Part shown: one piece after another, positions 10,371 through 63,931 of the stretch | Layout: every line of letters begins with the position of its first letter | Numbering within the stretch: position 1 is the first letter of the stretch | NCBI GenBank assembly: GCA_019359035.1 | Contig: JAHHIC010000051.1 | Coordinates: 94,146 to 158,145, forward strand | DNA from: Scytonematopsis contorta HA4267-MV1 | Lineage (GTDB): Bacteria; Cyanobacteriota; Cyanobacteriia; Cyanobacteriales; Nostocaceae | Reading direction: 5' to 3' | DNA length: 64,000 nt | The notes under the pieces: generated by a model | What the model was told of the DNA's origin: nothing | Database searches by the model: none | The model's input: only the letters and a program-made list of their open reading frames with translations | Position numbers and translations under genes: made by a program

Positions 10371-10922
10371 TTAAATAAGATTTTTCCCAGCACAACGGGA
10401 ATTGTCTAAAAGTTCGTTTAGCTTCGCAATAACTGTCCAAGGATTTCGACCTTTCAAAGGAGCAGCAATCGCAGCCTCATAGGGATTACGACCAGTTTGT
10501 TTAACTGCTTCAAGAGCTGCTTGGTTAGATAATCCTCGTGCATAGACTAACCAAGCAGCTAAAACATGTCCCGTGCGTCCACTTCCACCATAGCAGTGAA
10601 CCACAACTTTCTCGCTTTTTTGGTTTGCATCTGCCAAAAACGGTAAAATTTGCTGAGTTAAAGTTTCGCTATCTGCAAGTTGAAAATCCTCAATTGGTGC
10701 CCAGCAAACCTGATTCAATCCAAAACTGTTTCGATAAGCTTCTAGTAAATCAAAATCTGAGTAAGGAGCTAGCTGAGTCTGGGAAAGCAAACAGCAAACG
10801 CGCTTAATATCTTGACCCCGCATAAATTCAATCCACTGGTTGATATTTTCGTTGCTATACCCAGGTTTTGCGGCACCGAACACAATCGATTCACTTTCTG
10901 AGGCTGCTGCAAATTTATACAT
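10371..10922 (-). CDS. protein-tyrosine / dual-specificity phosphatase
   Basis: A CX5R P-loop is present: VVHCYGGSGRTGHV. The ATG start is chosen downstream of the TTG reported by the ORF track. Confidence 0.85.
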   Translation of the reverse strand: MYKFAAASESESIVFGAAKPGYSNENINQWIEFMRGQDIKRVCCLLSQTQLAPYSDFDLLEAYRNSFGLNQVCWAPIEDFQLADSETLTQQILPFLADANQKSEKVVVHCYGGSGRTGHVLAAWLVYARGLSNQAALEAVKQTGRNPYEAAIAAPLKGRNPWTVIAKLNELLDNSRCAGKNLI

Positions 10923-10972
10923 TTTGTCCAAATTTGTTTGCGTTTGTGATTATCAATATTATTTTTTAACCG

Positions 10973-13210
10973 CTATTTTTTTGATAAACAAATTGAATAA
11001 ACAAATACTGGTACTCTTTTATAAGCTGGTGTACCGCAACGTTTATCGATTTTCGCGGTAAAAATAGCGTTGACTTCCGGATAAAACATCATTGCTGCAC
11101 CTTGACGAATATCTCCGAAAATAATTTCCACGTTTTCTAATTTTCCTGCATCACCTTGAACTGTTACCCGTTGATGTTCGTCAAAACCAGCTTTATCGGC
11201 ATCTTGATGATTCATTAAAATACAATTCCGGTGTGGCATTCCGCGATAATAGTCACCAGGTTTATAAACAACTGTGTTGTGTTGCGAGTAACTTCTTCCT
11301 GTGCCCAAAATTAAGACAATACCTGGGGTTGATTCCGCTATCCCAAAATCTGCTTTGCTCGGTAAATTTAACTTTGGTAAAGGTGTAACAAACATTTTTG
11401 CTTTACCTGTATCTGTAGCAAATTTGGGTTGATTAAAAATACGTCCAGAAATAGTAAATTCTTCTCCTGTAATATCCATATCACCAATTTTTTCATAACC
11501 AGGAATTGTTTTTGCAATCAGTTCGCGGACGTATTTTGTATCTTGAAGTTTACGCCAATTTACTGGGTTATATCCCAAAACTCGATGAGCAATTTCAACG
11601 ATTAATTTAACTTCGGAAATCAAATCACCATTTTTTAAATGAGTTGTCCCCACATCATTGAGACGGACAAAATTATTACCCGATTCGACGGTAGTTTTAT
11701 GGGGATTTTCAAAGCGCGTAAATACTGGCAGAATAATAGTATTTTGCTTTGCTAAACCGTGAAAATGTCCGAGATTGGGTTTTGTTGCTACATAAAAAAT
11801 GGTTTCAATTTGTCCTAAAGCGCGTTTTGCTTGGTTTAAATCGGGGTTTGCTGCGTAGAGATTTCCTCCTAAACATATTAAAGTGTCAACTTCACCCTTT
11901 TCTGCAGCAGTAATCAATGCTCGTGTATCGTAGCCAGGAATGCGACTTAAAGGACGTTGCAACAGTTTTTCCAAAGCTTGCTGAATTTCTTTTTTGAGGT
12001 TGACAGTCACACCCATCGAGCCAAATCCTTGCACGTTTGAGTGTCCGCGAATGGGCATTGTTCCTGCACCTGGTTTTCCTGCGTTTCCTGTCAATAGTGC
12101 AGTATTGGCAATACTATAAATGTTATCGACGCCGTTTTCCTGTTGTGTGACTCCCATTGCCCAAGCAAACACTACACCCGAAGATGTGCGTATCATCCTC
12201 GCTGCGGCTGTAATTTCGTCTTGGGAAATACCGCAAGTTGTGGTAATTTTTTCCCAAGAAGTGCTTTCAGCATGTTTGATTATATTTTCCCAATCTTCGG
12301 TATGGGCTTTGAGAAAATCCTGTTTAACTAAATTTTGTGCGATTAAAGATTTTTGTATCCCCACAAATAAAGCGACATCACTACCAGGGATGGGTTGAAG
12401 ATATAGCGAGGAAATATCCGAACCACCCGCTAGCATAGATTTGATGGGGTACGCTGGGGATGCGAATTTAACTAAACCAACTTCTACGGTTGGGTTAATA
12501 ATAATTACCTTACCACCACGTTCCCGCAGTTTAATTAACTCATTCATCAACCGGGGATGGTTTGCTGGTGCATTAGAACCAATCAACACCACACAATCGG
12601 CTTGTTTGAGATTTTCTAAACTTACCATCGAAGTCCCGGAACCAAACATCTGCTTTAACCCTACCGTCGAAGCTGCGTGACACAAGTCTGAACAATCAGC
12701 TAGGTTATTGGAACCCAATGAACGCATCATCAGTTGCAGCAAAAATGCAGCTTCGTTCGATGACCGACCAGAACTATACGAAGCTATACGCTGGGAAGAT
12801 TTTCTAAATGCTGTCTCCGCAATTTGATAAACCTCATCCCAAGATATTCTTTCATAGCGCGAACTTCCCCGACGTAAAATCAAAGGATGAGTCAACCTAC
12901 CTAAATTATTTGCTTCCTGGGAATTTAATTCTTGTAGTTGTTCCAAAGTATAGTTTTGCTCGAACTGTGTGGCTGGTTGTAGTTCTGATGCAATTGCTTC
13001 TACACTTTTAGCGCAACGTTGCAACACTTCACCATCTTCATTAACAAAACCACCCTTTTGGCCACCTGTCCCCCACGCACAGGAAAGACAAGCACTTTTA
13101 TGAAACAATTTCTGCCAAACCTTGACACCATCAACAGATATAGTTTTATCTGCCCAGTATTTTATGACGGGCATTCCTCCACCGACATCTGGTGTTTTGT
13201 CAGCGCTCAT
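10973..13210 (-). CDS. FdhF/YdeP-family molybdopterin oxidoreductase (formate-dehydrogenase-like alpha subunit)
   Basis: The 745-aa ORF has an N-terminal Cys cluster for an Fe-S site (CLSCAWGTGG), molybdopterin-binding segments, and overall YdeP-like organisation. Confidence 0.85.
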   Translation of the reverse strand: MSADKTPDVGGGMPVIKYWADKTISVDGVKVWQKLFHKSACLSCAWGTGGQKGGFVNEDGEVLQRCAKSVEAIASELQPATQFEQNYTLEQLQELNSQEANNLGRLTHPLILRRGSSRYERISWDEVYQIAETAFRKSSQRIASYSSGRSSNEAAFLLQLMMRSLGSNNLADCSDLCHAASTVGLKQMFGSGTSMVSLENLKQADCVVLIGSNAPANHPRLMNELIKLRERGGKVIIINPTVEVGLVKFASPAYPIKSMLAGGSDISSLYLQPIPGSDVALFVGIQKSLIAQNLVKQDFLKAHTEDWENIIKHAESTSWEKITTTCGISQDEITAAARMIRTSSGVVFAWAMGVTQQENGVDNIYSIANTALLTGNAGKPGAGTMPIRGHSNVQGFGSMGVTVNLKKEIQQALEKLLQRPLSRIPGYDTRALITAAEKGEVDTLICLGGNLYAANPDLNQAKRALGQIETIFYVATKPNLGHFHGLAKQNTIILPVFTRFENPHKTTVESGNNFVRLNDVGTTHLKNGDLISEVKLIVEIAHRVLGYNPVNWRKLQDTKYVRELIAKTIPGYEKIGDMDITGEEFTISGRIFNQPKFATDTGKAKMFVTPLPKLNLPSKADFGIAESTPGIVLILGTGRSYSQHNTVVYKPGDYYRGMPHRNCILMNHQDADKAGFDEHQRVTVQGDAGKLENVEIIFGDIRQGAAMMFYPEVNAIFTAKIDKRCGTPAYKRVPVFVYSICLSKK

Positions 13211-22717: not shown

Positions 22718-25700
22718 TTAATTTTTACACAACAGTCTATCTTTGTCAGTGACATTTGACCTATCAATTTCCTTCAAATTATGTAAATCTCTTTGCAGTT
22801 GGTCGCATCCGCGCTTTAATAAATCATCTAAATCAAAATTCCAAACAATGTACGTGCCATCATTTGAGGGAGAAACAATTGTTTTACCGTCTGATGAAAA
22901 ACTGACGCTATTTATTGAATCTGAAACTTTGCCCAGGGTTATAATTTCCCTTCCTGTTGCAGCGTCCCACAATTTTATATTATTCAGGCTCTGCTTTTCA
23001 CCTATGGTATTTTTAGTACTATCAGACGCTGAGACAATAATTTTACCATCAGGCGAAAAATTTACGCTATTAACTTTAGCTTCATGTTTTTTAGGAGTAG
23101 CAAATAATATCTTATTACTGTTAACGTCCAAAATTTTTACTACTCTGTCATTAGTCGCAAAAGCAAGAGTTTTACCGTCAGGTGAAAAGCTGACACTATT
23201 AATTGCGGGAGGTTTGTTTTCGTTCGTGTTAAAAGGTTCAAAAGAGTCAAGGATGTCTGACAAGTCGTCAATAGCGTCTGTATTTGTTTGCCTTGTTGCT
23301 TCTTCTTTGTGTTCTTTAATGTAGCTTCCTTTTGCGACATCCCAAAATATCACTGTACCATCAGATGATGCAGAAGCAATAGTTTTACCGTCGGGGGAGA
23401 AACTGACGCTATTGACCCAGTTTGTATGTCTTTCAAGAGTCTTGATAACTTTGCCTATTTTTGCATCCCAGAGTTTTACCGTTTTGTCATCACTTGCAGA
23501 AGCTATAATTTCACCATTTGGTGAGAAGCGAACGCTATTGACTGAGGCTGAATGTCCTTTTAAAGTCTTGATTTCTTTTACTTTAGAAGTATCCCAGAGT
23601 TTAATAGTGGCATCAGAAGATGCAGAAGCAAGTATTTTGTTATTTGGGGAGAAACTGACACTTAATACCTCTGCTGTATGACCTTCAAGCGTTACGGGTG
23701 TTCCTTGAAAAGAACGTTTCCACAATTTTACCGTATTATCAGAAGACGCAGAAGCAATCTGTTTGCTATTTGGGGAAATGCTGACATCAAGCAGATAATC
23801 GAAGCTTGCTTCGAGAGACGCAATGGTACTTACTTGCCCACTATTAATATCCCATAACCTGACCGTATCACCGTTGCTAACAAAACGTATGATTTTACCG
23901 TCAGTTAAGAAGCTGAGATTCTTGACAGAAGATGGTCTTCTCAAAGTTTTGATTGAATTACCAGTAGTCGTGTCCCAGAGTTTTACCATTTTGTCATTAC
24001 TTACAGAAGCAAGAGTTTTGCCATCGTTGGAGAAAATTACGCTATTAACTTTGCTTGTATGTCCTTGAAAAGTTTTAATCAAAGCACCAGTAGCTGCATC
24101 CCATAGCTTCACCGTTCTGTCAGTACTTGCAGAAGCGAGAGTTTTGCCATCATTGGAGAAAATCACATTACTAACTCTGCCAGTATGTCCTTTGAGGGTT
24201 TTAATTGAATTACCAGTAGCTACGTCCCAGAGTTTCACCGTTTTGTCATCACTTGCAGAAGCAAGAGTTTCGCCATCTTTGGAGAAAATCACACTATTAA
24301 CTCCACCAGTATGTCCTTTAAAGGTTTTAATAGAATTACCAGTAGCCACGTCCCATAGTTTCACCGTTTTATCATCACTTGCAGAAGCAAGATTTTTGCT
24401 ATCGTTAGAGAAAATAACGCTATTAACACTTTCTGTACTTACTTTAAGCGTCTTATTAGAATTACCAGTAGCTACGTCCCACAGTTTTACTGTATTGTCA
24501 TCGATTGCAGAAGCGAAAGTTTTGCCATCGTTGGAAAAAATCACGCTTGTAACCCTATCTGTATCCCCTTTAAGGGTTTTAATTGAATTACCAGTAGCTG
24601 CGTCCCACAGTTTTATTGTATTGCTATCACTTACAGAAGCGAGAGTTTTACCATCGTTAGAGAAAATCACGCTTGTAACCCTGTCTGTACTTACTTTAAG
24701 GGTTTTAACGGAGATACCGGTAGCTGCATCCCACAGTTTCACAGTATTATTATCGCTTACAGAAGCAAGAGTTTTGCCATCGCTGGAGAAAATCACGCTT
24801 GTAACAATGCCTGTACGCCCTTCCAAAGTTTTAATAGAAGCACCAGTGGTTGCATCCCATAGTTTCACCGTTTTGTCATCACTTACAGAAGCGAGAGTTT
24901 TGCTATCGTTGGAGAAAATCACGCTTGTAACACTGCTTGTATGTCCTTCAAAAGTTTTAATAGAATTACCAGTAGCTACGTCCCAGAGTTTCACCGTTTT
25001 GTCATCACTTGCAGAAGCGAGAGTTTTGTCATCGTTAGAAAAAATCACCCTATTAACTCTACCTGCATGTCCTTTAAGGGTTTTAATGGAATTACCAGTA
25101 GCTACGTCCCATAGTTTCACCGTTTTGTCATCACTTAGAGAAGCGAGAGTTTTGCCATCGTTTGAAAAAATCACGCTATTAACTCTACCTGTATGTCCTT
25201 TAAGGGTTTTAATGGAATTACCAGTAGCTACGTCCCAGAGTTTAACAATTTTGCCATCACTTACAGAAGCGAGAGTTTTGCCATCGTTGGAAAAAATCAC
25301 ACTAGAAACCGAATCTTTATGTCCTTTAAGAGTATAAATGGAAGTACCAGTAGCTACATCCCAGAGTTTCACCGTTTTGTCGTAACTTGCAGAAGCGAGA
25401 GTTTTGCCATCGTTGGAGAAAAGCACGCTTAAAACTCTTCCTGTATGTCCTTTAAGAGTGTAAATGGAAGTCCCAGTAGCCACGTCCCAGAGTTTCACCG
25501 TGTTGTCGTAACTTGCAGAAGCGAGAGTTTTGCCATCATTGGAGAAAATCGCGTTATAAAACTGACCCGTATAAGTATGAATGTTAGTGCCAGTCGCTAC
25601 GTCCCATAGTTTCAAAGCTTTTTCACCTACAGAAGCGAGAGTTTTACAATCCCTGGAAACAATCACGTCATTAACTCCGCTTCCATACCTATCTCCTGTA

Positions 25701-28567
25701 TGTCCTTTAGGATTGTGGGTGATGACCGTTGGTTGAAAATCTAGCTGGCTTTGTAATGCACTTATCACTTCAATTTTAGTATCAGGTTCTGCCCATAAGC
25801 TAAAAATGTTACGTTGTAATTTCTGTGCGGCTTTGATAACATCTACTAGTGCTTCATTATTATCGCCTGCATCATGCCTTTGTACAGATTGGCTACTTAA
25901 TTGCCGTAGTTCTGCATCATTTCTGCGAATTTCGCTAATCCCCGCAAAAAACGAAACCACCAGCAAACCCATAACCAAGCTAAAAATAGTTAAATTGCGT
26001 CTAAATTTCTGCTGATGTTGTTGTTTATTTCTTTGTGTGATACTTTTTTTAATAAAATCACACTCTTTGTCAGTTAATTCCTCACCCCGTTGCTTGTACC
26101 AGTCCTCAGCGACTGAAAGTGCGGTTCCCTGCAATAATGAATCTGGATTTTGATTATTTTTCTCCCATTCTCGCTCATCTTGCTTTAATCTTTCTTGCCA
26201 AACTCTAAACTCGCGGTTATTTTCTATCCATTTGCGAAAAGTTCCCCATTCCCGAATTAATGCTTCGTGGACAATTTCTACTGTTTCCACTTTATTAATA
26301 TCATCTCTCCCCGTCACCACCAAACGCTTGTCGGCTAACTTTTGCACCAAGTCCCAATTTTTATCTCCTACATCCTGACGAGTTGCTACCCGTCGGGTGT
26401 CTTCTGTTCCTGCTCCTGGACTTACTAGCTGGATAAATATTTGTTCTGCTTTATATCTGTTATCTAAATCCTGCAATTGCAAAGCATCTAAAACTTCATC
26501 AGCATGTTTCGCTAAAGCTTTTTCTAAACCCCCTATTTCGTCATAAGCTTGGTGAGTTAAATACCAATTTTCTTGCTTCTCCCACAACTGCGTTAAAGCA
26601 AATTCTAACAGAGGTAAACGTCCGGGATGACTACCCAAATCATCGATTAACTTATTGGTTAAACCTGACTGCAATTCTACCTTCATTTTCAGAGCGGGTT
26701 TTTCAATCGCATCCCGTAACTCTTCCCTTTCCATTGGTGTGAGCAATAAAGGTGTATGCTCTTGCAAAGCTTTACCCAACAGGGAATTTAAGACTATTCC
26801 CAAAAAATCTGCTCTTAAAGTTAGCACTAAGGTAAAATTTTGTGCGTATTTAATTGTGAAATATAAAGCCTTTAGAAAACTCTGACGTTCTGTTTCTGGA
26901 GTGAGGGTGTAAAGTTCTTCAAATTGGTCAGCGACTAATACTAAACGTTGATATTTTGAAGAGGAAATTAAAGTTTGAATAACATCGCATAATTTTGTCT
27001 CATCATCGTGCCAATCTAACTCTAAATCTATTTGCGCTAATCTATTATCATTAATTTTTGACCTAACTTTTCTATGCTGTAATATTGACTTGTCAGAAAT
27101 ATCGCTTAAAGCCACAGCTAAGTTATCAAAAGGTTTATTTTCCGGACGAAAACTGACTATCCCGATATTACCGACATTTCGCAACTTTGGAAGCAACCCT
27201 GCAAACACAACGCTAGATTTACCGCTCCCAGAAGCACCGATGACAGCAACTAAGGGTTGATTATTTACCGCTTCTCGCAAACTAGCAATAAATTTTTCTC
27301 GACCAAAATAAAAAGCAGCGTCTTCTTCCCGAAATGCAGACAAACCACGATAGGGGTTATCGGGAAGTTCTCCTGTTAACCCTCCCAAATCCGACCAAGT
27401 TGGTGGAGCTTCGGTTGTATTTTGACAGATGACTGGTAACCAGGTTATCCCCGGTAGCTGGTTTTGCAAGTCTTGTTCATCTGCGAGTTCCAATAACTTA
27501 TCTCTGGCTTCCCCTACGGAAGTAAATAAAGATTTACCGCTTGCAAAAGAACTTAAAAAATATCCAATGAACTTTTGAGCAATGATATCTGGTACAACTT
27601 CACGCCAAACAATAATGTAACCTAAATTTAATTCCGCTAAATCTCTGGCTAAACCCAAACCATCGCAGGAATTGAATATCGCTAGCTTTAACCCATTAGC
27701 TATTGCTGCACTGAGTGTTTTTTTGATATCCGTTAAGCTGAGGGAATCCCGTGGGTTAATGTTGATGACTCCAGTTTGGGTATCGTTTTGGATATCGTTT
27801 TGGGTTTCACTATGCCCTGCAAAAAACAGGATATCACAAGGTTCTTCCCAAAGCATGTTAAAGTCCGCACGACTGGGTTCTGTGAGGGAAATTAATTCTG
27901 TTCCTCGTTTCTTCAATTTTTGCAGTAACTCTTTGTCTGTGTGAGTATCGATACCTTGACTATTGCCAAAAATACTGATGATTCTGGCTCTCCTAATTTT
28001 CTTAGCGGATTCATCTGTAGTCAGCTTGTTTGTAGTAGATTCATCTTTAGATACAAGAGTTTTAGCTGTGTGATAGTTAAAACAAAGAGCAGCTTCTTTT
28101 GTATAATTTTGAGATGGTAAATCTTCAGTAAAAAAATCCCATTCGTGCCAAGGTAGACGGTGTAAAATATCTTTTGTTGCGGAGGATGTCACTTTTTGTG
28201 TGTGGATTATCAAACGAATTTCTGAATCGGGGTACTGCCGCAATACTGACGATAATTTAGACTTGAGAGGCTGCAACCACTGATGCATTTGATGGCGTAA
28301 ATTCAGTGCTTCGTTGCGACAATCTCTTTCGGAAATATGAGTTACTTGGTTATTGGTAAAACCGCGTCGAGCATTCTTTGATAGTAAAGCATAATACTGG
28401 TATTTCCAATGTTCGTAGGAAAGAGGAATTTCAGTATTAGGAGATAACTGGGCTGACAACTGCGCGATTTTATTTGGTAAGGTCACAAATGTAACCGCAA
28501 ACTTATTTTTATCAAACCCGCTCTCAAAATTACCATCACCGAACTCTAAGTTTACAAATATTTCCAT
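22718..28567 (-). CDS. 1949-aa multidomain NLR-like protein. Domains in order: N-terminal domain of unknown function, CHAT (caspase-like) domain, STAND/NB-ARC-like NTPase, predicted TM helix, then about 25 WD40 repeats.
   Basis: The CHAT His/Cys dyad context is ILFFAGHSE...LAIFNSCDGLG. The NTPase region contains PYRGLSAFREEDAAFYFGRE and the P-loop VIGASGSGKSS. A hydrophobic segment, LTIFSLVMGLLVVSFFAGISEI, may be a TM helix. Many GH...WD units are present, and the repeats are highly similar at the DNA level. Confidence 0.85.
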   Translation of the reverse strand: MEIFVNLEFGDGNFESGFDKNKFAVTFVTLPNKIAQLSAQLSPNTEIPLSYEHWKYQYYALLSKNARRGFTNNQVTHISERDCRNEALNLRHQMHQWLQPLKSKLSSVLRQYPDSEIRLIIHTQKVTSSATKDILHRLPWHEWDFFTEDLPSQNYTKEAALCFNYHTAKTLVSKDESTTNKLTTDESAKKIRRARIISIFGNSQGIDTHTDKELLQKLKKRGTELISLTEPSRADFNMLWEEPCDILFFAGHSETQNDIQNDTQTGVININPRDSLSLTDIKKTLSAAIANGLKLAIFNSCDGLGLARDLAELNLGYIIVWREVVPDIIAQKFIGYFLSSFASGKSLFTSVGEARDKLLELADEQDLQNQLPGITWLPVICQNTTEAPPTWSDLGGLTGELPDNPYRGLSAFREEDAAFYFGREKFIASLREAVNNQPLVAVIGASGSGKSSVVFAGLLPKLRNVGNIGIVSFRPENKPFDNLAVALSDISDKSILQHRKVRSKINDNRLAQIDLELDWHDDETKLCDVIQTLISSSKYQRLVLVADQFEELYTLTPETERQSFLKALYFTIKYAQNFTLVLTLRADFLGIVLNSLLGKALQEHTPLLLTPMEREELRDAIEKPALKMKVELQSGLTNKLIDDLGSHPGRLPLLEFALTQLWEKQENWYLTHQAYDEIGGLEKALAKHADEVLDALQLQDLDNRYKAEQIFIQLVSPGAGTEDTRRVATRQDVGDKNWDLVQKLADKRLVVTGRDDINKVETVEIVHEALIREWGTFRKWIENNREFRVWQERLKQDEREWEKNNQNPDSLLQGTALSVAEDWYKQRGEELTDKECDFIKKSITQRNKQQHQQKFRRNLTIFSLVMGLLVVSFFAGISEIRRNDAELRQLSSQSVQRHDAGDNNEALVDVIKAAQKLQRNIFSLWAEPDTKIEVISALQSQLDFQPTVITHNPKGHTGDRYGSGVNDVIVSRDCKTLASVGEKALKLWDVATGTNIHTYTGQFYNAIFSNDGKTLASASYDNTVKLWDVATGTSIYTLKGHTGRVLSVLFSNDGKTLASASYDKTVKLWDVATGTSIYTLKGHKDSVSSVIFSNDGKTLASVSDGKIVKLWDVATGNSIKTLKGHTGRVNSVIFSNDGKTLASLSDDKTVKLWDVATGNSIKTLKGHAGRVNRVIFSNDDKTLASASDDKTVKLWDVATGNSIKTFEGHTSSVTSVIFSNDSKTLASVSDDKTVKLWDATTGASIKTLEGRTGIVTSVIFSSDGKTLASVSDNNTVKLWDAATGISVKTLKVSTDRVTSVIFSNDGKTLASVSDSNTIKLWDAATGNSIKTLKGDTDRVTSVIFSNDGKTFASAIDDNTVKLWDVATGNSNKTLKVSTESVNSVIFSNDSKNLASASDDKTVKLWDVATGNSIKTFKGHTGGVNSVIFSKDGETLASASDDKTVKLWDVATGNSIKTLKGHTGRVSNVIFSNDGKTLASASTDRTVKLWDAATGALIKTFQGHTSKVNSVIFSNDGKTLASVSNDKMVKLWDTTTGNSIKTLRRPSSVKNLSFLTDGKIIRFVSNGDTVRLWDINSGQVSTIASLEASFDYLLDVSISPNSKQIASASSDNTVKLWKRSFQGTPVTLEGHTAEVLSVSFSPNNKILASASSDATIKLWDTSKVKEIKTLKGHSASVNSVRFSPNGEIIASASDDKTVKLWDAKIGKVIKTLERHTNWVNSVSFSPDGKTIASASSDGTVIFWDVAKGSYIKEHKEEATRQTNTDAIDDLSDILDSFEPFNTNENKPPAINSVSFSPDGKTLAFATNDRVVKILDVNSNKILFATPKKHEAKVNSVNFSPDGKIIVSASDSTKNTIGEKQSLNNIKLWDAATGREIITLGKVSDSINSVSFSSDGKTIVSPSNDGTYIVWNFDLDDLLKRGCDQLQRDLHNLKEIDRSNVTDKDRLLCKN

Positions 28568-33217: not shown

Positions 33218-33291
33218 TGGTAAAAGTATAGGAATCGAACCTATTACCAATCGGTTAACTGCCGACCGCTCTTCCAGTGAGCTAACTTTTT
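33218..33291 (-). tRNA. tRNA-Asn(GUU)-like gene. It has an unusual all-A/U acceptor stem and may be a pseudogene.
   Basis: Reverse-complement read: acceptor AAAAAGT, D-arm GCTC-ACTGGAA-GAGC, anticodon arm GTCGG-CAGTTAA-CCGAT with anticodon GTT, T-arm ATAGG-TTCGATT-CCTAT, then ACTTTTA-CCA. The 1:72 pair is A/A. Confidence 0.5.
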
Positions 33292-33292
33292 T

Positions 33293-33365
33293 TGGTGTAT
33301 GATGAAGGACTCGAACCTTCGTCCAGCCGATTTTTCGGATGCTCTGCCAACTGAGCTAATCACAC
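33293..33365 (-). ncRNA. Anticodon-less tRNA-like element with alanine-type acceptor features (G3:U70, A73, encoded CCA)
   Basis: Reverse-complement read: acceptor GTGTGAT/ATCATAC including a G3:U70 wobble; D-arm GCTC-AGTTGGCA-GAGC; T-arm GAAGG-TTCGAGT-CCTTC; then A-CCA. The anticodon arm is replaced by a 15-nt segment with a short CCGA-AAAA-TCGG hairpin. Confidence 0.45.
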
Positions 33366-48076: not shown

Positions 48077-49585
48077 ATGTCAACTCTAACTTATTGTAAG
48101 GGACTACCAACTCCATTAGATGAATTAAACTCACTTGGCTTTACTAAGCTCGAAATGTTTTTGGCAGCTTATGCGACTGAGTTCCATAAAGCTGTTTGTC
48201 AGACTGTTAATCATTTGCTTTCACTTGGGGATAAAAAGTTTGATAAGTCTGGTTGGAATACTCATATCCAAAATAAATATGGTTTTTTAAAACGTCAGGC
48301 TAATGGTGTTATATCATCTGCAATTGGTAAAATAGACTCAGCAAAAGAATGTAGAGTAAATCATATAAAACAACTAGAAGGTAAACTTAAATCAGCATTA
48401 GAGTGGGTAAAAAAATCACTTAAAAAACTCTTGCTCGCCGAAAAATTTTACTTAAAACCCAACTGGATAAACTCAAAAACGGGATGTAATTATCCATTAA
48501 GTTGTTGGTTAAGTGATGCTCTAACTAATTGGCAAGCCTTGAGAAAAAATATTCATCATAAAAAAAGATATATTGCTAAACTTCAAAAACAAATTGCCCA
48601 TTTAAAAAAAGCCCCACTAAGAGTAAAAGTGCCTAAAAGTGATATATTTCTTGTTGGGTCAAAGGATGAAACCTGTGGGAACCAAGTATGCCAATGGGAT
48701 GGTGACTTAATTACTATTAGAGTACCCAAATGCTTAGAGTCTAATTTTGGAACCCATGTTCAATCAAAAATTGGTAATTTTGAGAGAAAAAATTCTCGCT
48801 TACCTACATCCGGAGCAAAAACATGGCACTTTTATCGTAAAGATGGTAAGTGGACTGTTGCAGTACAATTCACTCCGATAAAAGTCAAAAAGCGTACTCT
48901 TGATATTAAGTGGGGAGCGATTGGAATTGATATTAATCCAAGTTCAATTGGCTGGGCTTATATTGATTACCAAGGAAATTTAAAACTACAGGGTCAAATA
49001 CCATTGCAGCAAGGATTACCAAAAGGTAAACAACAGGCTCAACTGGTTAATGCCTGTTTAAAACTAGCAATTTTAGCTGATACGTTTGCTTGTCCAATTG
49101 TTGCTGAGAATATAGATTTTACAATCAAAAAACAACAACTAAGAGAAAAAGGTAATCAATATGCTCGTATGCTTTCCGGTTGGGCATACTCTAGATTTTT
49201 TGAATTATTAGCTAGTATTTTATCCAATCGTGGGTTGAGATTAGTTCATGTAAATCCAGCATATTCAAGTTTACTTGGATGCGTCAAATACATGAAAATG
49301 TATGGTTTGCCATCTGATGTTGCTGCAGCTATTGTAATAGCTCGTAGAGGCATGAAATTGAGTGAAAGAATGCCCCGCTCTGTGTCCGCCTATTTAGGGG
49401 TGAACCCTAGAAAGCACGTATGGAGCGGGTTGTCAAAATTTAATAATACTGTAGTACGAACTGGCAACGTAGTTAAGTCACGGCACGACTACTTTGTTAT
49501 CCCTAACTGGGGAGTGGTGGTTAAGGATGTCGTCGAGCGAGTAACTGTAAAAGGTAAAAGTCGGGCAGTTTCCAAGCAAGCTTAA
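48077..49585 (+). CDS. tnpB: TnpB-like RuvC-fold protein (IS200/IS605 OrfB-related) apparently lacking the zinc-finger
   Basis: RuvC-I-like WGAIGIDINPSSIG, RuvC-II-like CPIVAENIDFT, and RuvC-III-like VNPAYSS...SDVAAAIVIARRG are present. No CxxC...CxxC motif lies between RuvC-II and RuvC-III. The N-terminal ~250 aa is unassigned. Confidence 0.55.
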   Translation: MSTLTYCKGLPTPLDELNSLGFTKLEMFLAAYATEFHKAVCQTVNHLLSLGDKKFDKSGWNTHIQNKYGFLKRQANGVISSAIGKIDSAKECRVNHIKQLEGKLKSALEWVKKSLKKLLLAEKFYLKPNWINSKTGCNYPLSCWLSDALTNWQALRKNIHHKKRYIAKLQKQIAHLKKAPLRVKVPKSDIFLVGSKDETCGNQVCQWDGDLITIRVPKCLESNFGTHVQSKIGNFERKNSRLPTSGAKTWHFYRKDGKWTVAVQFTPIKVKKRTLDIKWGAIGIDINPSSIGWAYIDYQGNLKLQGQIPLQQGLPKGKQQAQLVNACLKLAILADTFACPIVAENIDFTIKKQQLREKGNQYARMLSGWAYSRFFELLASILSNRGLRLVHVNPAYSSLLGCVKYMKMYGLPSDVAAAIVIARRGMKLSERMPRSVSAYLGVNPRKHVWSGLSKFNNTVVRTGNVVKSRHDYFVIPNWGVVVKDVVERVTVKGKSRAVSKQA

Positions 49586-50410: not shown

Positions 50411-50564
50411 TTATCAAAATAGTATATTCAATACATCTCCGGAAAATAAAAAATACCTAAAATAAAGTCAAAAATAAAACTGAACTTACTAGTCCATTTT
50501 ACATAGACATTTGCTAAATACTCTATTTACCCCCCGCGATACTAGAATTCAGGTTTGGACAGAA

Positions 50565-50890
50565 AGCTTTGGCGAATATAGAAATAATCATTATCAAAAA
50601 TTTCTTAAAGCATTGCAAAATAAGACTTGCTAATTTAAATTGATTAACAATAACCTAAAAATATTATCCTGAAATACCTATAAAATATACAAAATAATAA
50701 TGATTATCCCTATATTCGCCGCAAACCCTTACGAAAAATTGAATTTCACAACATTAGCCAGCCATCTCGATACCCAAGACCACAACCGTCATAATTGCTC
50801 TGATATTATCTTCATAAATTCAACGCACAACCGTCAACGCAGTATTTGCCGAGTGCGATCGCTAATCCCAAACCTAAATATTTTGCCACT
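50565..50890. repeat. ~320-bp dispersed repeat, copy B
   Basis: Matches copy A. Together they bracket the tnpB-like and HTH genes. Confidence 0.85.
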
Positions 50891-51049
50891 CTTGGTTAAA
50901 AGGGATTATTCAGTTAACCGTTCCGGTGTTCGCTAGTTGTAGAAAGCAACCGTTGAAATAGAAAATCATCTCCCCCACCTTTTATTTTATCAGGTGGTAT
51001 TCTTCGCAGTTGACCCTAGAATTCCCTTCCTTGCAAACAATCCACACAG

Positions 51050-51200
51050 ATGTAGAGATTATCATTATCATAAATTCATGAATGCATTGAGATATAACCA
51101 TTATTATTTTAAATTGATTGACAATAATCAAAAAATATAGTCCTAAAACTACCATAAAATCTACTAAATGGTAATGATTATCTCTATATTCGCGTAAAAA
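51050..51200. repeat. Partial third copy of the 5' ~150 bp of the dispersed repeat
   Basis: AATTGATTGACAATAA...AATGATTATCTCTATATTCG is shared with copies A and B. Confidence 0.75.
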
Positions 51201-51412
51201 CTGCCGATGGGATAGCTTACAGACAACTCATCAACCACAACGATAAATTTATCAAAACCCACCCTCTCCACTCTCCATAAAAATTTCTAGGAGATAAATA
51301 TAGTTCAACAACCATATCCGAAATTATACGGAAACAAATATAATCATTTCCGGAATCACTTAGGTAGAGTAAGTATCATATAGCAACGTGCTGACTGGGA
51401 AAAGGTCGTGTG

Positions 51413-53461
51413 ATGAATCAAGAAAACAAAGAAAACGCCAAAGGTCACCAAACTCAAATCAACGATAGCGGAACTGCTAATATCGTTGATAACACCAGCA
51501 CGACAAACCAGTCAGCACAAGGAACTGGCAATAACTTATCAATAAATAACAGTAAATACGACCAAAGACAAGCCAATATAGCTGGTATTGTCGATACTGC
51601 TCATAGTGGCAGCAACATACAATTTAATCAATATATTAACCAACCCCCCCGTGAACCAATAAAACCCGCAAACAAAATACCCCACCAAGGAACCTCCCAT
51701 TTCGTCGGACGAGATAACGAACTCGCACTTATCCACGAAAAATTCACCGAGCAAAACCACACAGTTGCAATTTCCGCAGTTGCAGGGATGGGTGGTGTTG
51801 GTAAAACAGAGCTAGCAGTAAAATACGCGAGAGAGCATATTAATGATTATCCTGGAGGAACTTGTTGGTTTAGCGTCCGTTCTTCTAATATTGCAACAGA
51901 AATTCTCACCTTCGCCAAAAATGACCTGCGATTAGAAATACCTCAAAAAGACATTCAAGAACAACCCCTAACGCTACAACAACAAATAGACTGGTGTTGG
52001 AGAAATTGGCAACCACCAGATGGGGTAGTATTAATAGTATTTGATGACGTTACTGATTTAGAGAATTTTGCTGATTATTTACCGAAAAATAACCGCTTCC
52101 ACGTCTTAATCACAACCAGATTGCGAGAAATTGACGCTAACATCGAGGAAATATCTTTAGATGTGCTGTCACCAGAAGAAGCCTTAAGATTATTTACTAA
52201 TATAGTTGGTGAAAAAAAGGTAAATAAAGAAGCAGAAATAGTCAAAGAAATATGTAAATGGCTAGGATATTTACCGTTAGGGATAGAATTAGTCGGGAGA
52301 TATATAACTAAAAAACCCCCTCATTTTACTTTAGCAAGAATGCTAGAGCAATTAAAGCAGCAGCGATTAGAGCAAGAAGGGATAAATCCACAGCAAAAAA
52401 CATTAAGTACAGCGCAACTTGGTGTCAAAGCAGCGTTCGAGTTAAGCTGGTTAGAATTGAACGAACAAACGCAGAAATTTGCTGCACTATTAAGCTTATT
52501 TGCGGCAGAGATTTTTGCCTGGGATTGGGTAGAGTCTATAACTCAGTCGCTAAATTGGGATGAGGATGATGTAAATAAAGCGATTGAGGAACTTTATCAA
52601 CGGCATTTGGTTAACTCTTTAGAAGAATCAGATATATTTTACTATAAAATTCATACTTTAATCCGCGATTTTTTACAAGATAAGTTAACAGTATTACCAG
52701 AAATAGACGAATTTAAAAGAGCGTTCGTGGGTACTTTTATCGAAATAGCTCAAACAATTCCTGATTCACCGATTTTAGAAGAAATAAATTCAGTAAAAAA
52801 CACAATTCCCCATTTAGCGGAAGTCGCAGAAAAATTAATTGATACAGTGAGCAATGAAGATTTAATTTGGGCTTTTCTTGGCAATGCTAGATTTTATGAT
52901 GGACAGGGTTTATATACATTAGCATCACCTTGGTACGAACAATGCGTATCTGTAGTCAAATCTCGCTTGGGAGAAAATCATCCTGGTTATATGGAATTAA
53001 AAAAAATGTCAACAACGAACAACAACAACAACAAATCTAGGACTATATAGAGACTTTACATTGTTTGCATGTAAATAAAATGCATTATAGAAAAAGCTTT
53101 ACACGATGCGGACATTGTAACTAAAGTCAAGTTACTTCCAAATGGTTCCTAAACCTTTTGTTGTTGTCGTTGTTGACATTTAGTTTATATTCCACATAAC
53201 TTAGACTATGCTACCAGCTTAAACAATTTAGCTTTTCTCTACTACTCAATCGGAAAGTATGATGAAGCAGAACCGCTTTTTCTCCAAGCTTTGGAGTTAA
53301 GAAAACGCATACTGGGAGAAAATCATTCAAATACAATAGTAGTCAAACAAAATTTAGCTATTTGCTGGGTTAAAGGACTTGAAAAAGGTTATTTCTCAAT
53401 CGAAGTACTGCGCGAAAACCCTCTTTTCATCCAAATAATTACGGAGCTATATCAACAATAA
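51413..53461 (+). pseudogene. NB-ARC (STAND) NTPase + TPR gene disrupted by a MITE insertion in the first TPR
   Basis: The P-loop reads GMGGVGKTELA, Walker B reads VLIVFDDV, and the GLPL motif reads LGYLPLGIEL. The in-frame TPR continuation LDYATSLNNLAFLYYSIGKYDEAEPLFLQALELRKRILGENHSNT resumes at 53201 in the same reading frame. Stop codons lie inside the inserted element. Confidence 0.75.
53005..53180. mobile_element. MITE-like insertion of ~175 bp with (CAA)n-rich terminal inverted repeats
   Basis: The left TIR TGTCAACAACGAACAACAACAACAACAAA (53007-53035) is the reverse complement of the right TIR TTTGTTGTTGTCGTTGTTGACA (53157-53178). The interior is AT-rich and non-coding. Confidence 0.75.
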
Positions 53462-54420: not shown

Positions 54421-54955
54421 TGTAGTGCGGGCATCTTGCCCGCTTCCTGTACACAAATTACCGCGCTTCCTATACACAAATTACCGCTTCCTATATACAA
54501 ATTACCGCGCTTCCTATACACAAATTACCGCTTCCTATACACAAATTACAGCGCTTCCTGTACACAAATGACAGCGTTTCCTGTACACAAATGACAGCGT
54601 TTCCTGTACACAAATTACAGCGCTTCCTGTACACAAATTACAGCGTTTCCTGTACACAAATTACAGCGTTTCCTGTACACAAATTACAGCGTTTCCTGTA
54701 CACAAATTACAGCGCTTCCTGTACACAAATTACAGCGTTTCCTGTACACAAATTACAGCGCTTCCTGTACAGAAATTACCGCTTCCTGTACAGAAATTAC
54801 CGCTTCCTGTACAGAAATTACCGCGCTTCCTGTACAGAAATTACCGCGCTTCCTGTACAGAAATTACCGCTTCCTGTACAGAAATTACCGCTTCCTGTAC
54901 AGAAATTACCGCGTTTCCTGTACAGAAATTACCGCGCTTCCTGTACAGAAATTAA
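54421..54955. repeat. Minisatellite of about 24 tandem 21-23-nt units (GCGCTTCCTGTACACAAATTACA variants). It is seeded by a GTAGTGCGGGCATCTTGCCCGCTTCC hairpin element.
   Basis: Read directly. The units differ by single substitutions (T/G, C/A, C/T) and a 2-nt indel. There are no unique spacers. Confidence 0.9.
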
Positions 54956-57478: not shown

Positions 57479-60433
57479 TTAAGAATTCCAGACTTGATAA
57501 AAATCTAAATAAGTCATATTTTCCGCACAATGCCACAGTAATTTATAACAAAATCCAAGAGTTTCCGTGACATCATTATTTACTTCATTCTCAAAAAAAT
57601 CTCTTAAAGATATAATTACTTCTCGTAGCTGTTCAACAAGTAAAACTTCTTTTAAATTATCAGATGCGCGTTTGCGAAGTGATTTATCGGGAGATGATTT
57701 AACAATATTTAATAAAGTGTAAAAAGCCACAGAGTTTCCTGGGTCAATTTGGGCTAATTTATAAGCTTTGTTTCGACGTGTAGAGTCATCTTTAGCGAAC
57801 TCAATTCCCTTGAGTAAAGAAGAAATTTTTTGAGCTTTTAATAGTGCTGAATAAGTTTTATAAGTATTTTGTTTCGGTACAGATGTTTTGAACTTAAAAG
57901 CAGACAAATTAGAATTAGATGCAGCGGATGTCATACCGCGTAAAGTCACCAAATTATCGACTACGATTCTTTTCAAAGATGCATCGGTTGCAATTTCTGC
58001 TATTTTCTCTAATGTTGAGATTGCTAACTGGTTGCTCGTATCGATTTTCCCTAAACTATAGGCTACTTTTCGTTGTATGGATAAGTTTTTAGTTGACTTT
58101 ATAATTTCAACTAATGCAGTAACTGCTGCTTCGTTAAGAGGGTCTACTCTACCTAGATAGTGTGCTATTTGCCAACGAAAATTTTCTTGACGAGCGGTTT
58201 TTAGAATTTTTTCTAGTACTGAAATAGCAACTTGATTCTGCGGGTCAAATGATTTTCCTAAACTATAAGCTGCGTTCCAAATGTAAAATTCGTTTTCGCT
58301 TGATTGAATGAATTCTTCTAAAGCGACAATTGCTTTTGTGCGTTCGGTTTTTAGCAAAGCTACTCGCGCACTTTCGACAATTGAAACTGGATAATTGTAC
58401 CACTTATGTATTTTTTTATCAAAATAACCAAATCGCCATTTAATTAATTGTCGCACAATTACATCCGCGTTGCGACAATCGGTAAACTCGGCAATTCCTA
58501 GCGCGGCTAAAAAATAAGCTTGATATTGGTAATAACCACCACACCCGTCTTGAAAATTAATTAGCGCTTGAATAAATTCTTCCTTTTGTACTTGTGGTAT
58601 ATCATCCCTACCTAACCAGAGTAAAATTACTTCTCGCCACTGGGGTTCAAAAATACGATAAATCCCTTGAGTACAGTCATCCAGGTTATAGTGTAAAAAA
58701 TATTGCCAATCCGGAATTGCTTGTGCAGCAAAATACTCTTGAAATGTGGGATGATAAAATGCATAAACTTTTTCTCCCAGAGTTTCGGAGATACCTATTT
58801 GATTTAACCATCCAAGCTGAAGCGCTAATTGGAAAAAACCGTTATCTGGCTCACCCAAAACTTCGCAAACAAATCGATGTCTCAGACGAAATTTTGTTTT
58901 TTCCTGGGCAATTGCGAGTAAAGCCAATTCACTGAGTGCGGTATTTAGCTGTTTTCGTTGCGCGTATGTTGTTGGGAAACGGTCTTGTTTCCACTCATAA
59001 ATAGCCTCAACAAACTGCTCATAAAGCATTGCTTTGGTGTTAGGAAAACTACCTTGAGTTAATCCCCAAGTACGACATAACAGCGCTAAACGTAAGGGAT
59101 TTTTGACTGCATCCTTAATTCGTCCTCTTCCACCCTTGTCTAATTCGGTACGCAGTTTTTCTCCTAACTGTGGATTATTCTTAAACCAACGACAGATAAA
59201 TTCCCCTACTAAATCACCAGACTTTTGTAAGGTTCTGTGTGACGTGCCGTAAGAAAAACTCAGGTTACGATATGTATCAAAATTTTCTAGCGCGTTCTTT
59301 CCTGCATCCCATACGTTCAAGCGACAGGTAAGGATTATAGTGGCGTCTGCTACCCAACCTTTGAGGAAAGTCGCAAGCATTGATAGGGCTTTGGTTGACT
59401 CTATTGTCATTTCATCCACCGCGTCTAGCAGCAACCACACTCGTCCTTGGTTAAATAAAGTGGTAAATTCCATTTCCATTTCTGGAGAAATCTGTGGTTT
59501 ACGGGTAGCATTTTTTAGCCAATCTTGAATTAGGTATTCTTCTAGAGTTTTACCCTGCAAATCAGCCAAAGAGACCCAAATCGGTAGACCAGAGGTTTTT
59601 TCTAATATTCCTGCAGCAATTCTTTGCAACAGGGTAGTTTTTCCTGCACCTGGTTCTCCCAAAATAGCGAGACGTTTACTTTGTTGTTGTAACACTTGTT
59701 GGAGAAATTCATCGTTAGCAAAAGTTTGTGTTGATTCCACATCTTCAGGTTCGTACAAACGCGAACCCTCGTAGGGTGCGAAATCATTATGACGACGCTC
59801 TCTTCCTTTACGTTCTACTAAACCTAGAGGTACGTAAACCTCATCTAACTCAAAAGTTACCCCATCCATACTAGTCAGAGGGTTAGTGGTTAGTCGTTTA
59901 TGATGTTGCGCTTCTAGAGTATCGCGGCAGATGTTTTGCCATTCGGTTTGCAATTCCACATCGGGAATAGCCTCGGACTTTATAGCTTGGGACTTTAATA
60001 CTTGGGGGGAGGGGGATAATTTTGAGCTATGACGCTGTTCCCATTCTTGGTCAAATTTTTGTAGGTTGGCAAGTTGGTCATTGCGATCGCACCAAAGTTT
60101 TAGGGTAAAGTGCCAAGTTTCCGAGCCGCTGCGTGTGGGACGGTTATCTTCAAGAATTTCTAAATAATCCGCAAATCGTTTGAGTGCTTCTTTAATTTGT
60201 TCGGCGTTAAGTGGGTTGTTGGGGACGATTGTTGCTGTGAGCGTTGACAAATAACGCACTTTGGTTCGGACAACTAGTTTATTTTCTGTGTGCCAACGAG
60301 TTTGTATATGAGGACGCAAAGCATCAATAAGGGCTTCATCACAGTCTAACTCGTCATTGGCATAAGCCAACAACGCCTCAAATAAAAGGCGTGCTCGCTT
60401 TTTTGCTTGTTGACCGTAACTTGCTCTTGCCAT
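57479..60433 (-). CDS. NACHT-family STAND NTPase with an N-terminal helical domain and C-terminal HEAT repeats
   Basis: The P-loop reads ILGEPGAGKTTLL and Walker B reads VWLLLDAVDE. The C-terminal 350 aa contain repeated ...AAYSLGKI/AHYLGRV... HEAT-like units. Confidence 0.85.
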   Translation of the reverse strand: MARASYGQQAKKRARLLFEALLAYANDELDCDEALIDALRPHIQTRWHTENKLVVRTKVRYLSTLTATIVPNNPLNAEQIKEALKRFADYLEILEDNRPTRSGSETWHFTLKLWCDRNDQLANLQKFDQEWEQRHSSKLSPSPQVLKSQAIKSEAIPDVELQTEWQNICRDTLEAQHHKRLTTNPLTSMDGVTFELDEVYVPLGLVERKGRERRHNDFAPYEGSRLYEPEDVESTQTFANDEFLQQVLQQQSKRLAILGEPGAGKTTLLQRIAAGILEKTSGLPIWVSLADLQGKTLEEYLIQDWLKNATRKPQISPEMEMEFTTLFNQGRVWLLLDAVDEMTIESTKALSMLATFLKGWVADATIILTCRLNVWDAGKNALENFDTYRNLSFSYGTSHRTLQKSGDLVGEFICRWFKNNPQLGEKLRTELDKGGRGRIKDAVKNPLRLALLCRTWGLTQGSFPNTKAMLYEQFVEAIYEWKQDRFPTTYAQRKQLNTALSELALLAIAQEKTKFRLRHRFVCEVLGEPDNGFFQLALQLGWLNQIGISETLGEKVYAFYHPTFQEYFAAQAIPDWQYFLHYNLDDCTQGIYRIFEPQWREVILLWLGRDDIPQVQKEEFIQALINFQDGCGGYYQYQAYFLAALGIAEFTDCRNADVIVRQLIKWRFGYFDKKIHKWYNYPVSIVESARVALLKTERTKAIVALEEFIQSSENEFYIWNAAYSLGKSFDPQNQVAISVLEKILKTARQENFRWQIAHYLGRVDPLNEAAVTALVEIIKSTKNLSIQRKVAYSLGKIDTSNQLAISTLEKIAEIATDASLKRIVVDNLVTLRGMTSAASNSNLSAFKFKTSVPKQNTYKTYSALLKAQKISSLLKGIEFAKDDSTRRNKAYKLAQIDPGNSVAFYTLLNIVKSSPDKSLRKRASDNLKEVLLVEQLREVIISLRDFFENEVNNDVTETLGFCYKLLWHCAENMTYLDFYQVWNS

Positions 60434-62791: not shown

Positions 62792-63931
62792 ATGCAACTA
62801 ACTAAAATTACTTTTAAAGGTTTAGAAATAGCACCCTCCCAAGTACATGGTGCTATCCGTATTGTTCCCTTGCTACGTCGCGAAGTACGTGGTGACTTAC
62901 GCTTACTAAAACGTTCCTATGAAGAAGACTTGGCTATAGTTTCTTTAGAAAAAGACATGAAATACCTTTCTTATGTCCCCCACGGTTTAGTTATGTCTTG
63001 GACAAAAGATGGCAGTGCTGTCACAAACTTTGGTGGGGACATGATGAAATCTGACGGAAAGCGTTTAGACTGTCGGTGTGCAAGCGTTCGTTTGATGCAA
63101 CGTATGGTAAAACGTGAAGCGAAAAACGAACTGCGATTTTTACCTCTACACTTAGCAATGGAAGGTTTTCTTTCATTATATTTCAACGGGCCCAAAATCG
63201 CTTGGGAAGAATATTCTAAGTATGCTCTTTCCTACGGGTTAGGTTGTCGCTACGAAAGTTTTGTTAGTGGACGTGATATTGCTGGATTAGAAGACGCATT
63301 ACGTGTATTTGAAATTCATACTGGACAAGTGGGAGTACTTGTTTATGTTGCTGAAGCTTTAGCATCCGTATTTGTTGTTCCCACCCCAGAAGATTACCGT
63401 GCGTTACACAACAGTTTAATAGAAGACTTCTACGGCGAATTAATTTACCAATATGCTTTAACTTATAATACAACTTACCCAATCGATTGCAAAATTGATG
63501 AGTCAAGAATTAGTAATTTAGCAGATTTGCGAATTGCTGTAGATAAAATGCGTTTAAATTGGGCATCATTTCAAAGTGTGATGGCAAATGGGTTTTTAGA
63601 CAGAGAATTAAATTCTAAAACAGTTTACAACGCAAATCCTTTTACTTTACAAAGATTTATAACTAACTTAGAAGGATATAATGAAAACTATATTGGAGAA
63701 GCAATAGTCAGGGATAATGGCGAATTGGAATATTTGCATACCTATCGCTTATCGGATGCACAAACACGTCGCGCTCGCTATCTTAGCAAGTTAGAAGAAA
63801 ATAATTGGAACTTACATAAAACTGCGTCTTCTCTTTCTTACGACTACCAAGAGTTTGTGCAAAGGATGGAGAAAGAAGGCTTTGGGTATTTGTTTAAACA
63901 ACAAGTCAGAGATAAAGCACGCAAACGATAA
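62792..63931 (+). CDS. hypothetical protein (unknown family)
   Basis: The 379-aa ORF has an ATG and balanced composition. It lies directly downstream of the vWA gene and the structured element. Confidence 0.6.
   Translation: MQLTKITFKGLEIAPSQVHGAIRIVPLLRREVRGDLRLLKRSYEEDLAIVSLEKDMKYLSYVPHGLVMSWTKDGSAVTNFGGDMMKSDGKRLDCRCASVRLMQRMVKREAKNELRFLPLHLAMEGFLSLYFNGPKIAWEEYSKYALSYGLGCRYESFVSGRDIAGLEDALRVFEIHTGQVGVLVYVAEALASVFVVPTPEDYRALHNSLIEDFYGELIYQYALTYNTTYPIDCKIDESRISNLADLRIAVDKMRLNWASFQSVMANGFLDRELNSKTVYNANPFTLQRFITNLEGYNENYIGEAIVRDNGELEYLHTYRLSDAQTRRARYLSKLEENNWNLHKTASSLSYDYQEFVQRMEKEGFGYLFKQQVRDKARKR

Follow-up and report, generated by a model that had tools for sequence, protein, structure and literature searches.

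Transposons of the Tn554 type encode two tyrosine recombinases, tnpA (361 aa) and tnpB (~630 aa), followed by tnpC (~125 aa), and occupy one conserved site inside radC with six-base junction sequences and no target duplication (PMC3788773, PMC10214605). The TnpC of Tn6188 is named a "DUF6262 family protein" by NCBI (PMC11947258), and actinobacterial Tn554-related elements combine one abnormally long recombinase (611-828 aa) with one of ~350 aa and, often, a TnpC relative (PMC3414803). Here, we scrutinized a 64,000-nucleotide stretch of the cyanobacterium Scytonematopsis contorta HA4267-MV1 (contig JAHHIC010000051.1, positions 94,146 to 158,145; hereafter the window), in which a gene encoding an NB-ARC domain and TPR repeats is split by an insert. 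A preliminary description of the same DNA had presented this insert as a ~175-bp MITE (miniature inverted-repeat transposable element) with (CAA)n-rich terminal inverted repeats. It is an insertion, both of its ends are homologous to those of three-gene tyrosine recombinase elements, it lacks a target duplication, its net gain is the element plus 6 bp, and a full-length relative occupies the same kind of site in the same orientation. Our favored reading, held with good confidence, is that a cyanobacterial Tn554-related transposon gave rise to the insert (positions 52985-53203), a miniature derivative that has no genes and is lodged in a TPR unit of an NB-ARC/TPR gene.

The interrupted open reading frame (ORF; 51413-53050, plus strand, 545 aa, with an alternative GTG start at 51410) encodes an NB-ARC domain (Pfam, E 7.6e-22) followed by TPR repeats, as expected of an NB-ARC/TPR STAND (NLR-like) protein. 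Its 5' part (51413-52984) runs for 524 codons, identified from the ORF list, translation, and Pfam, to ...SRLGENHP of the first TPR unit. Because the insertion lies between HP and DY codons, the ORF reads 21 codons into the element (GYMELKKMSTTNNNNNKSRTI) and halts at a TAG (53048-53050), leaving the last 85 codons detached; as the preliminary description recognized, the C terminus (...GENHPGYMELKKMSTTNNNNNKSRTI, also given as ...SRLGENHPGYMELKKMSTTNNNNNKSRTI) is thus element-encoded. It was equally correct that the TPR frame returns 150 nt past the stop in the same frame, here confirmed by translation and Pfam, as LDYATSLNNLAFLYYS..., an 86-aa piece ending at 53461. The detached 3' part of the gene (53204-53461, plus strand, 85 codons and a stop, DYATSLNNLAFLYYS...ELYQQ) comprises ~1.5-2 TPR units and a tail, and matches TPR_10 (E 5.3e-15) and TPR_12 (E 3.6e-13).

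In silico removal of 52985-53203 (219 bp, 73 codons) produces a 609-aa ORF with the junction VKSRLGENHP^DYATSLNNLA (the caret marks the insertion point), restores the 42-aa TPR period, and leaves a predicted empty site with the nucleotide sequence ...CATCCTGACTATGC.... The healed protein aligns collinearly with P0098 of Calothrix sp. PCC 6303 (...VKSRLGENHPDVASSLNNLA...), an intact homologue of 612 aa. The 120 best homologues contain 596 HP..A.S.NNLA motifs, and in every one of them exactly two residues separate HP from A.S.NNLA, DY being the fourth commonest pair. Since the healed frame is collinear with intact homologues, the two ORFs belong to a single TPR array and the insert measures 219 bp, not ~175 bp; its placement between GENHP and LNNLA of a single TPR unit, proposed from the letters alone, was accurate, as was the pairing of the upstream and downstream ORFs. 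The homologues of the NB-ARC protein number 2,655, most of them 700-1,050 aa long and with far more TPR units than the ~2.5 that the healed protein would hold.

The preliminary description also spoke of a recent insertion that pseudogenized the gene. Truncation of the ORF is evident from its translation, whereas loss of function is our inference, since the truncated 545-aa ORF persists with its NB-ARC domain whole, and nothing supports a recent date. The truncated product is in the public record as an annotated protein (P0001, 100% identical, from the S. contorta HA4267-MV1 metagenome-assembled genome), which carries a lesson for annotation: this recorded 545-aa "TPR protein" is a truncated gene.

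The closest relative of the NB-ARC gene product, P0058 (88% identical), is encoded on a Joint Genome Institute (JGI) metagenome contig from a different cyanobacterium, L003, of which positions 5391-7729 share 88.8% DNA identity with window positions 50525-52864. Just upstream of that match, the same GENHP^DYA position of a different, neighboring TPR gene carries an insert (...GGAGAAAATCATCCC^GATTATATGGAATTAAAC......TTTATAACTTA^GACTATGCTTCC...). This insert is 4.6 kb long and encodes, antisense to the TPR gene, two Phage_integrase proteins (347 and 758 aa) and a DUF6262 protein (320 aa; Pfam E 9.4e-9). The same three-gene block occurs in Scytonema sp. UIC 10036 (L004), Nostoc sp. JL31 (L095/L096), several Logan/ENA assemblies (L005-L013, L098-L100), and 80 metagenome loci (L015-L094). 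In the full-length relatives (4.6-5.7 kb; trio present in L003, L004, L005, L016, L019, L095, and L098), a short tnpA-like tyrosine recombinase (~347 aa), a long tnpB-like one (~758 aa), and a DUF6262/TnpC-like protein are enclosed by inverted repeats at the termini, 11 bp long and conserved, and by subterminal (CAA)n/(TTG)n repeats.

Comparison was made with a genuine Tn554, reached by tblastn with TnpC, on the Enterococcus faecalis plasmid NZ_MH830363.1 (order tnpB-tnpC-ant(9)-Ia-erm(A)). The third protein of L003 is 38% identical to Tn554 TnpC over 122 aa (E 6e-19), and its long recombinase is 23% identical to Tn554 TnpB over 296 aa (E 7e-7), including the C-terminal GYC...C.H..AC..C motif. 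Given the homology to both TnpC and TnpB, the full-length relatives are distant members of the Tn554 family. The best plasmid matches to the long recombinase were from Streptomyces and Rhodococcus (42-45% identity). The insert itself holds none of the gene trio that characterizes Tn554-related transposons, and is hence a derivative rather than an autonomous member.

Sequences upstream of the short recombinase gene were aligned, as were those downstream of the third gene. Approximately 40 elements of 3.4-6.5 kb, whose long recombinases are 42-62% identical to that of L003, start with TTAYGTGGAAT and finish with ATTCCAYRTAA, the proximal motif being preceded by a semiconserved T-M-T-M-A-G and the distal motif followed by T-S. 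This TTAYGTGGAAT/ATTCCAYRTAA motif was not found in the transposon literature searched. Both terminal motifs are present in the insert, correctly oriented with respect to each other and 213 bp apart (52987-53199). Profiles built with nhmmer from full-length cyanobacterial ends alone, excluding the flanking genes (distal, L003/L005/L016/L019/L023; proximal, L003/L013/L004/L005/L016/L019), were then searched against the whole window. Each gave a single significant match, on the minus strand: the proximal-end profile at 53203-53098 (E 5e-6, profile positions 1-101) and the distal-end profile at 53081-52985 (E 2.2e-7); weaker cross-matches on the opposite arm are expected for inverted repeats. Since both profiles match, the insert consists of two element ends joined with ~16 nt between them, with ~106 nt remaining from the tnpA-proximal end and ~97 nt from the distal end, and the three genes (~4.4 kb) are missing.

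The 219-bp insertion resolves into a 213-bp element, measured from repeat to repeat, and six further bases, of which GG lie at the left and CTTA at the right. By homology, its minus strand is the strand of the missing recombinase genes, which places the tnpA-proximal end at the right. The distal terminal inverted repeat is TTATATGGAAT on the plus strand (52987-52997; reverse complement ATTCCATATAA) and the proximal one ATTCCACATAA (53189-53199, plus strand; reverse complement TTATGTGGAAT); both 11-bp repeats fit the family consensus perfectly. As delimited by alignment and profiles, the distal-type segment (52985-53081, minus strand) contains the (CAA)n arm at 53006-53035 and the proximal-type segment (53098-53203, minus strand), corresponding to the leader upstream of the short recombinase gene, contains the (TTG)n arm at 53157-53179. 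Taken as a whole, the inverted repeats span 52986-53042 and 53147-53200, with GTTATATGGAAT (52986-52997) and ATTCCACATAAC (53189-53200) as their outermost extension. The (CAA)n arms first reported as terminal inverted repeats are real inverted arms, but they are imperfect, with a 7-nt indel between them and a right arm that is not the exact reverse complement of the left, and they are subterminal, the true termini lying 19-20 nt further outward.

The insert is poorer in G+C than the window (30% vs. 37%) and, as single-stranded DNA, is predicted to fold into a long hairpin (-41.9 kcal/mol, z = -8.3) that none of 200 shuffled sequences equaled, which places the inverted repeats well outside chance expectation. 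Stops occur in all six of its frames, leaving no coding capacity. An Rfam search of the element gave no match, and promoter and terminator scans of it did no better than on shuffled sequences.

Target sites were compared across the family. A target-site duplication, which the preliminary description had proposed to identify, is absent at the insert, where the hexamers to either side (GGTTAT and GACTAT) have the same base at four positions out of six. Nor was a direct target repeat found at any offset among 33 nonredundant elements, in which the best 3-mer identity of 0.47 reflects conserved bases. Taking out the repeat-to-repeat segment together with six bases, four beside the proximal repeat and two beside the distal repeat, restores a continuous conserved protein in five elements, which are all the cases with both flanks known and a recognizable target. 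The restored junctions are HP^DYA(T/S)SLNNLA of a TPR unit in the window and L003, SIP(A/S)NI(A/S)^EG(Y/K)GR of a four-helix-bundle protein in L016 and L019, and CEKCQTKHDR^DVNASINLR of TnpB in L095 from Nostoc sp. JL31. The target gene of each of the five is antisense to the recombinase genes. The right flanks of four others (L004, L013, L098, and L099) read D-x-(N/Q)-(A/G)-x-x-N-I/V, the RuvC-III motif of TnpB, and outside cyanobacteria pairs of distinct elements share common flanks, for example L084 and L092 in an IS630-like ...HGTTSL site. One further assignment, of the L005 target to a TPR unit, was dropped as ambiguous, because its 18 flanking codons (STKKRYSI^DLSASYNIAA) fit the TnpB motif D-x-N-A-x-x-N-I equally well.

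The lack of duplication and the element-plus-6-bp rule fit a site-specific recombinase acting on joined ends with a 6-bp spacer, and do not fit cut-and-paste by a DDE transposase. Presumably, a tyrosine recombinase catalyzed crossover of the target ...CATCCT^GACTAT... with the joined ends of the element, in which a 6-bp spacer separates the two inverted repeats, an integration route like that proposed for Tn554 and related elements. The element sits precisely at the boundary of the HP and DY codons in the TPR_10/12 unit, its orientation being fixed. The ~4.4 kb between the retained ends would have been lost from the window copy, and any later movement or excision of the mini element would need the three proteins supplied in trans.

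We also considered, and rejected, the possibility that the insertions in the window and in L003 descend from one inherited event: their element ends share 58-66% identity, compared with 88.8% in the orthologous flanks, and the left flanks and gene contexts differ. With element-end identity so far below flank identity, the parent is unsampled and the two insertions arose independently, each at the same kind of site.

Several points weigh against a Tn554-related miniature. Identity between the ends of the insert and those of any full-length element sampled reaches just 53-66%, and no full-length parent is known. Its distal spacer reads ATAACC, versus ATAATC in all five full-length cyanobacterial relatives, which might mean decay. 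The recombinase trio is absent from the window, and the Tn554 homology of L003 was traced through TnpB and TnpC. Classical Tn554-type elements are, moreover, described as lacking clear inverted repeats (PMC3788773), a respect in which the cyanobacterial clade differs. In silico, the crossover positions are approximate.

Searches for further copies add to these points. No second copy of the mini element was found within the window, where unoccupied TPR target sites (CAYCC-N7-GC…AAYAAY) were likewise absent. In 610 kb of related loci, the insert was the only short end-to-end pair. Comparison of the element with 72,556 plasmids by blastn gave no match, and an exact scan for the (CAA)n arm (ATGTCAACAACGAN{0,1}CAACAACAA) across 185,579 species genomes, S. 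contorta not among them, returned two unrelated matches only. An exact left-end scan of metagenome contigs returned zero matches; L003 was also missed, so these samples lie outside that collection. When the element-encoded peptide tail (…HPGYMELKKMSTT…) was used as a 45-column alignment in a protein search for other truncated genes, two candidates but no match emerged. With no second mini copy in the window, the related loci, the plasmids, or the exact scans, to which the S. contorta genome is external, mobility as a miniature is unproven, as is the preliminary proposal that the insert defines a MITE family.

The strongest competing explanation, to which we assign somewhat less than an even chance, is that the site first received a full-length Tn554-related element, whose three genes were later removed by an internal deletion. 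On this view, the 219 bp are a relic that never moved as a miniature and, being single-copy, define no MITE family. This differs from our favored reading in history and mobility only. The solitary mini copy in everything searched, the altered base of the otherwise conserved distal spacer, and deletion endpoints that fall at about the start and end of the coding block all favor such a relic. Against it, both 11-bp terminal repeats are perfect relative to the consensus, and the element could still be a substrate; its single-copy status is also unproven, since the scans did not cover the S. contorta genome beyond the window. On balance, arrival as a miniature and the hollowing out of a full-length copy in place are about equally likely.

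By comparison, it is improbable that the insert is a classic MITE, a deletion derivative of a DDE-transposase insertion sequence recognized through (CAA)n-rich terminal inverted repeats. The small size, inverted repeats, AT-rich noncoding core, and strong hairpin would all suit one, and the insert is indeed small, noncoding, bounded by inverted repeats, and gene-truncating. However, target-site duplication is lacking, the outer termini and both subterminal regions match tyrosine recombinase elements and not a DDE transposase, and the exact-arm scan of species genomes recovered only the two unrelated matches.

Programmed interruption is more doubtful still. Conditional site-specific excision would then restore the NLR-like gene, as in the nifD, fdxN, and hupL elements of heterocyst-forming cyanobacteria, and the filamentous Nostocales-type host, the in-frame insert (219 bp being 73 codons) between gene halves that are otherwise intact, and the recombinase sites at the element ends would be consistent with this. 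Yet a recombinase is encoded neither in the element nor in the window, precise removal must also take the six extra bases, and end-to-end recombination of the related SEs is reported to leave no empty site (PMC10214605). The occurrence of the same family in TnpB, IS630, and four-helix-bundle genes also looks like parasitism, not regulation. That there is no insertion at all, and that a chimera in what is a metagenome-assembled source or a native divergent linker is responsible, is scarcely credible, given that a single codon boundary holds both junctions, the TPR periodicity is exact once the insert is taken out, two ends of a defined mobile-element family lie in correct mutual orientation, and an independent contig (L003) has a relative at the same site.

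Other features of the family and its hosts emerged from these comparisons. Lineages of the widespread two-tyrosine-recombinase family, with or without TnpC, have their own targets within conserved coding motifs, among them HDR^DxNA in TnpB, NIA^EG in the four-helix-bundle protein, HP^DY in TPR units, and the IS630-like ...HGTTSL. The target flanks of L049 are reverse complements of each other (GGTCGAAGGGTTTGTTGGTA / TACCAACAAACCCTTCGACC), and two loci (L068, 2273-2304; L079, 626-657) have two tandem proximal-type motifs 10 nt apart (TTATATGGAAT, then TTACGTGGAAT). In L004, a second integrase (443 aa) and a DUF6262/VPA1267 protein directly follow the trio (9519-11484). A DUF3644 gene lies inside the element boundaries of L095 (7085-7909), and in L095-L097 the long recombinase is split into ORFs of 134 and 620 aa. 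Many non-cyanobacterial members of ~3.5 kb have no detectable similarity to the TnpC-like protein of L003. The L003 orthologue of the NB-ARC gene (L003 6242-7729 vs. window 51413-52864) is itself just 434 aa long. Similarity between L003 and the window ends abruptly at window position 52864 (L003 7729), after which an NB-ARC-like paralogue begins, with L003 8010-8145 resembling window 51517-51640; this suggests rearrangement among tandem paralogues.

Elsewhere in the window, a 502-aa ORF (48077-49585, plus strand) has TnpB-like C-terminal motifs (NPAYSS...; SDVAAAIVIARRG) and no Pfam match at E<=0.01. From its sequence, it is probably a divergent TnpB/IS1341-type gene, and it bears, unoccupied, a D-x-x-A-A motif of the kind targeted by other members of the element family. 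Between an EcsC-family gene and a pilin-like gene lies a tandem array (54441-54954) in which a 23-bp unit (CGCTTCCTGTACACAAATTACCG, 93% matches) recurs ~23 times and which also shows a higher-order period of 88 bp. The neighborhood is rich in STAND/NLR-like conflict genes, encoding an nSTAND1-WD40 protein of 1,948 aa (22718-28567, minus strand), an EAD4-NACHT-HEAT-NCC-H protein of 983 aa (57479-60433, minus strand), and an ARPP-2 protein (62792-63931, plus strand). Two adjacent tRNA genes (33220-33365, minus strand) were the sole Rfam matches in the window.

Most of the interest of this case, which we judge moderate, lies in the family features that comparison exposed. Tn554 relatives are common well beyond Firmicutes and Actinobacteria, and the common 11-bp terminal motif allows their ends to be annotated. 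Separate lineages home in on coding motifs that are conserved within repeated gene families; such motifs offer each lineage many landing sites, and NLR-like immune-sensor genes and other transposons (TnpB) are recurrent targets. A bolder proposal, which we advance tentatively and regard as unlikely on present evidence, is that the 213-bp element is the first recognized MITE-like element mobilized by tyrosine recombinase (Tn554-type) machinery, belonging to a large, undescribed "motif-homing" clade. If true, members of that clade would integrate without duplication into conserved codons of multicopy gene families, including TPR arrays (NLR-like genes), TnpB, four-helix-bundle proteins, and IS630 transposases, and site-specific recombination could turn NLR-like sensor genes off, and perhaps on again, in multicellular cyanobacteria. 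The MITEs of bacteria are generally regarded as deriving from insertion sequences, and tyrosine recombinases go unmentioned in a 2024 review of MITEs in prokaryotes; a Tn554-type miniature made of ends only would add a different mobilization chemistry to that class. We found no paper on a miniature nonautonomous derivative of a Tn554-type element.

Like the insert, bacterial MITEs (e.g., Nezha in cyanobacteria, Correia, and RUP) are small, noncoding, bounded by inverted repeats, hairpin-forming, gene-interrupting, and presumed to depend on proteins in trans. They are, however, derived from insertion sequences, use DDE or HUH transposases, have target duplications or hairpin ends, and occur in many copies, whereas the insert has no duplication, a tyrosine recombinase type of parent, and one known copy. 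CIMEs, the attL-attR remnants of integrative elements, likewise consist of two tyrosine recombinase recombination ends without recombinase genes and could be mobilized in trans. Unlike the insert, they derive from ICE/IME-type islands and have direct-repeat att sites, usually at tRNA genes or gene ends, and are not of the inverted-end Tn554 type.

SEs, GInts, and RITs resemble the family in their target specificity, in inverted terminal repeats with a 6-bp spacer when joined, and, for SEs, in a 6-bp footprint (PMC10214605). SEs and GInts have four core genes, including one for a catalytically dead recombinase-like protein, and RITs encode three true recombinases (PMC10214605), whereas the full-length relatives hold two Phage_integrase genes and DUF6262 only. 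For the actinobacterial Tn554-related elements, neither miniatures, terminal motifs, nor motif-level targets have been described, and the cyanobacterial clade was not covered (Van Houdt et al. 2012, PMC3414803).

The nearest counterpart is the Tn554 family of Firmicutes (Tn554, Tn558, Tn559, Tn5406, Tn6188, Tn553, and Tn6674), with which the full-length relatives share the order short recombinase-long recombinase-TnpC (DUF6262), orientation-specific insertion at a conserved intragenic site, six extra bases, and the lack of duplication (PMC3788773, PMC10214605). Unlike that family, they reside in cyanobacteria and soil bacteria. Their long recombinase is larger than that of Tn554 (~758 vs. ~630 aa), as is the TnpC-like protein (320-400 vs. 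~125 aa), and at their ends long subterminal (CAA)n repeats accompany clear terminal inverted repeats of 11 bp. In contrast to Tn554, most full-length relatives are without cargo, the window copy being without genes or cargo, and the radC site of Tn554 is replaced by motifs of multicopy gene families, namely TPR, TnpB, and four-helix-bundle proteins.

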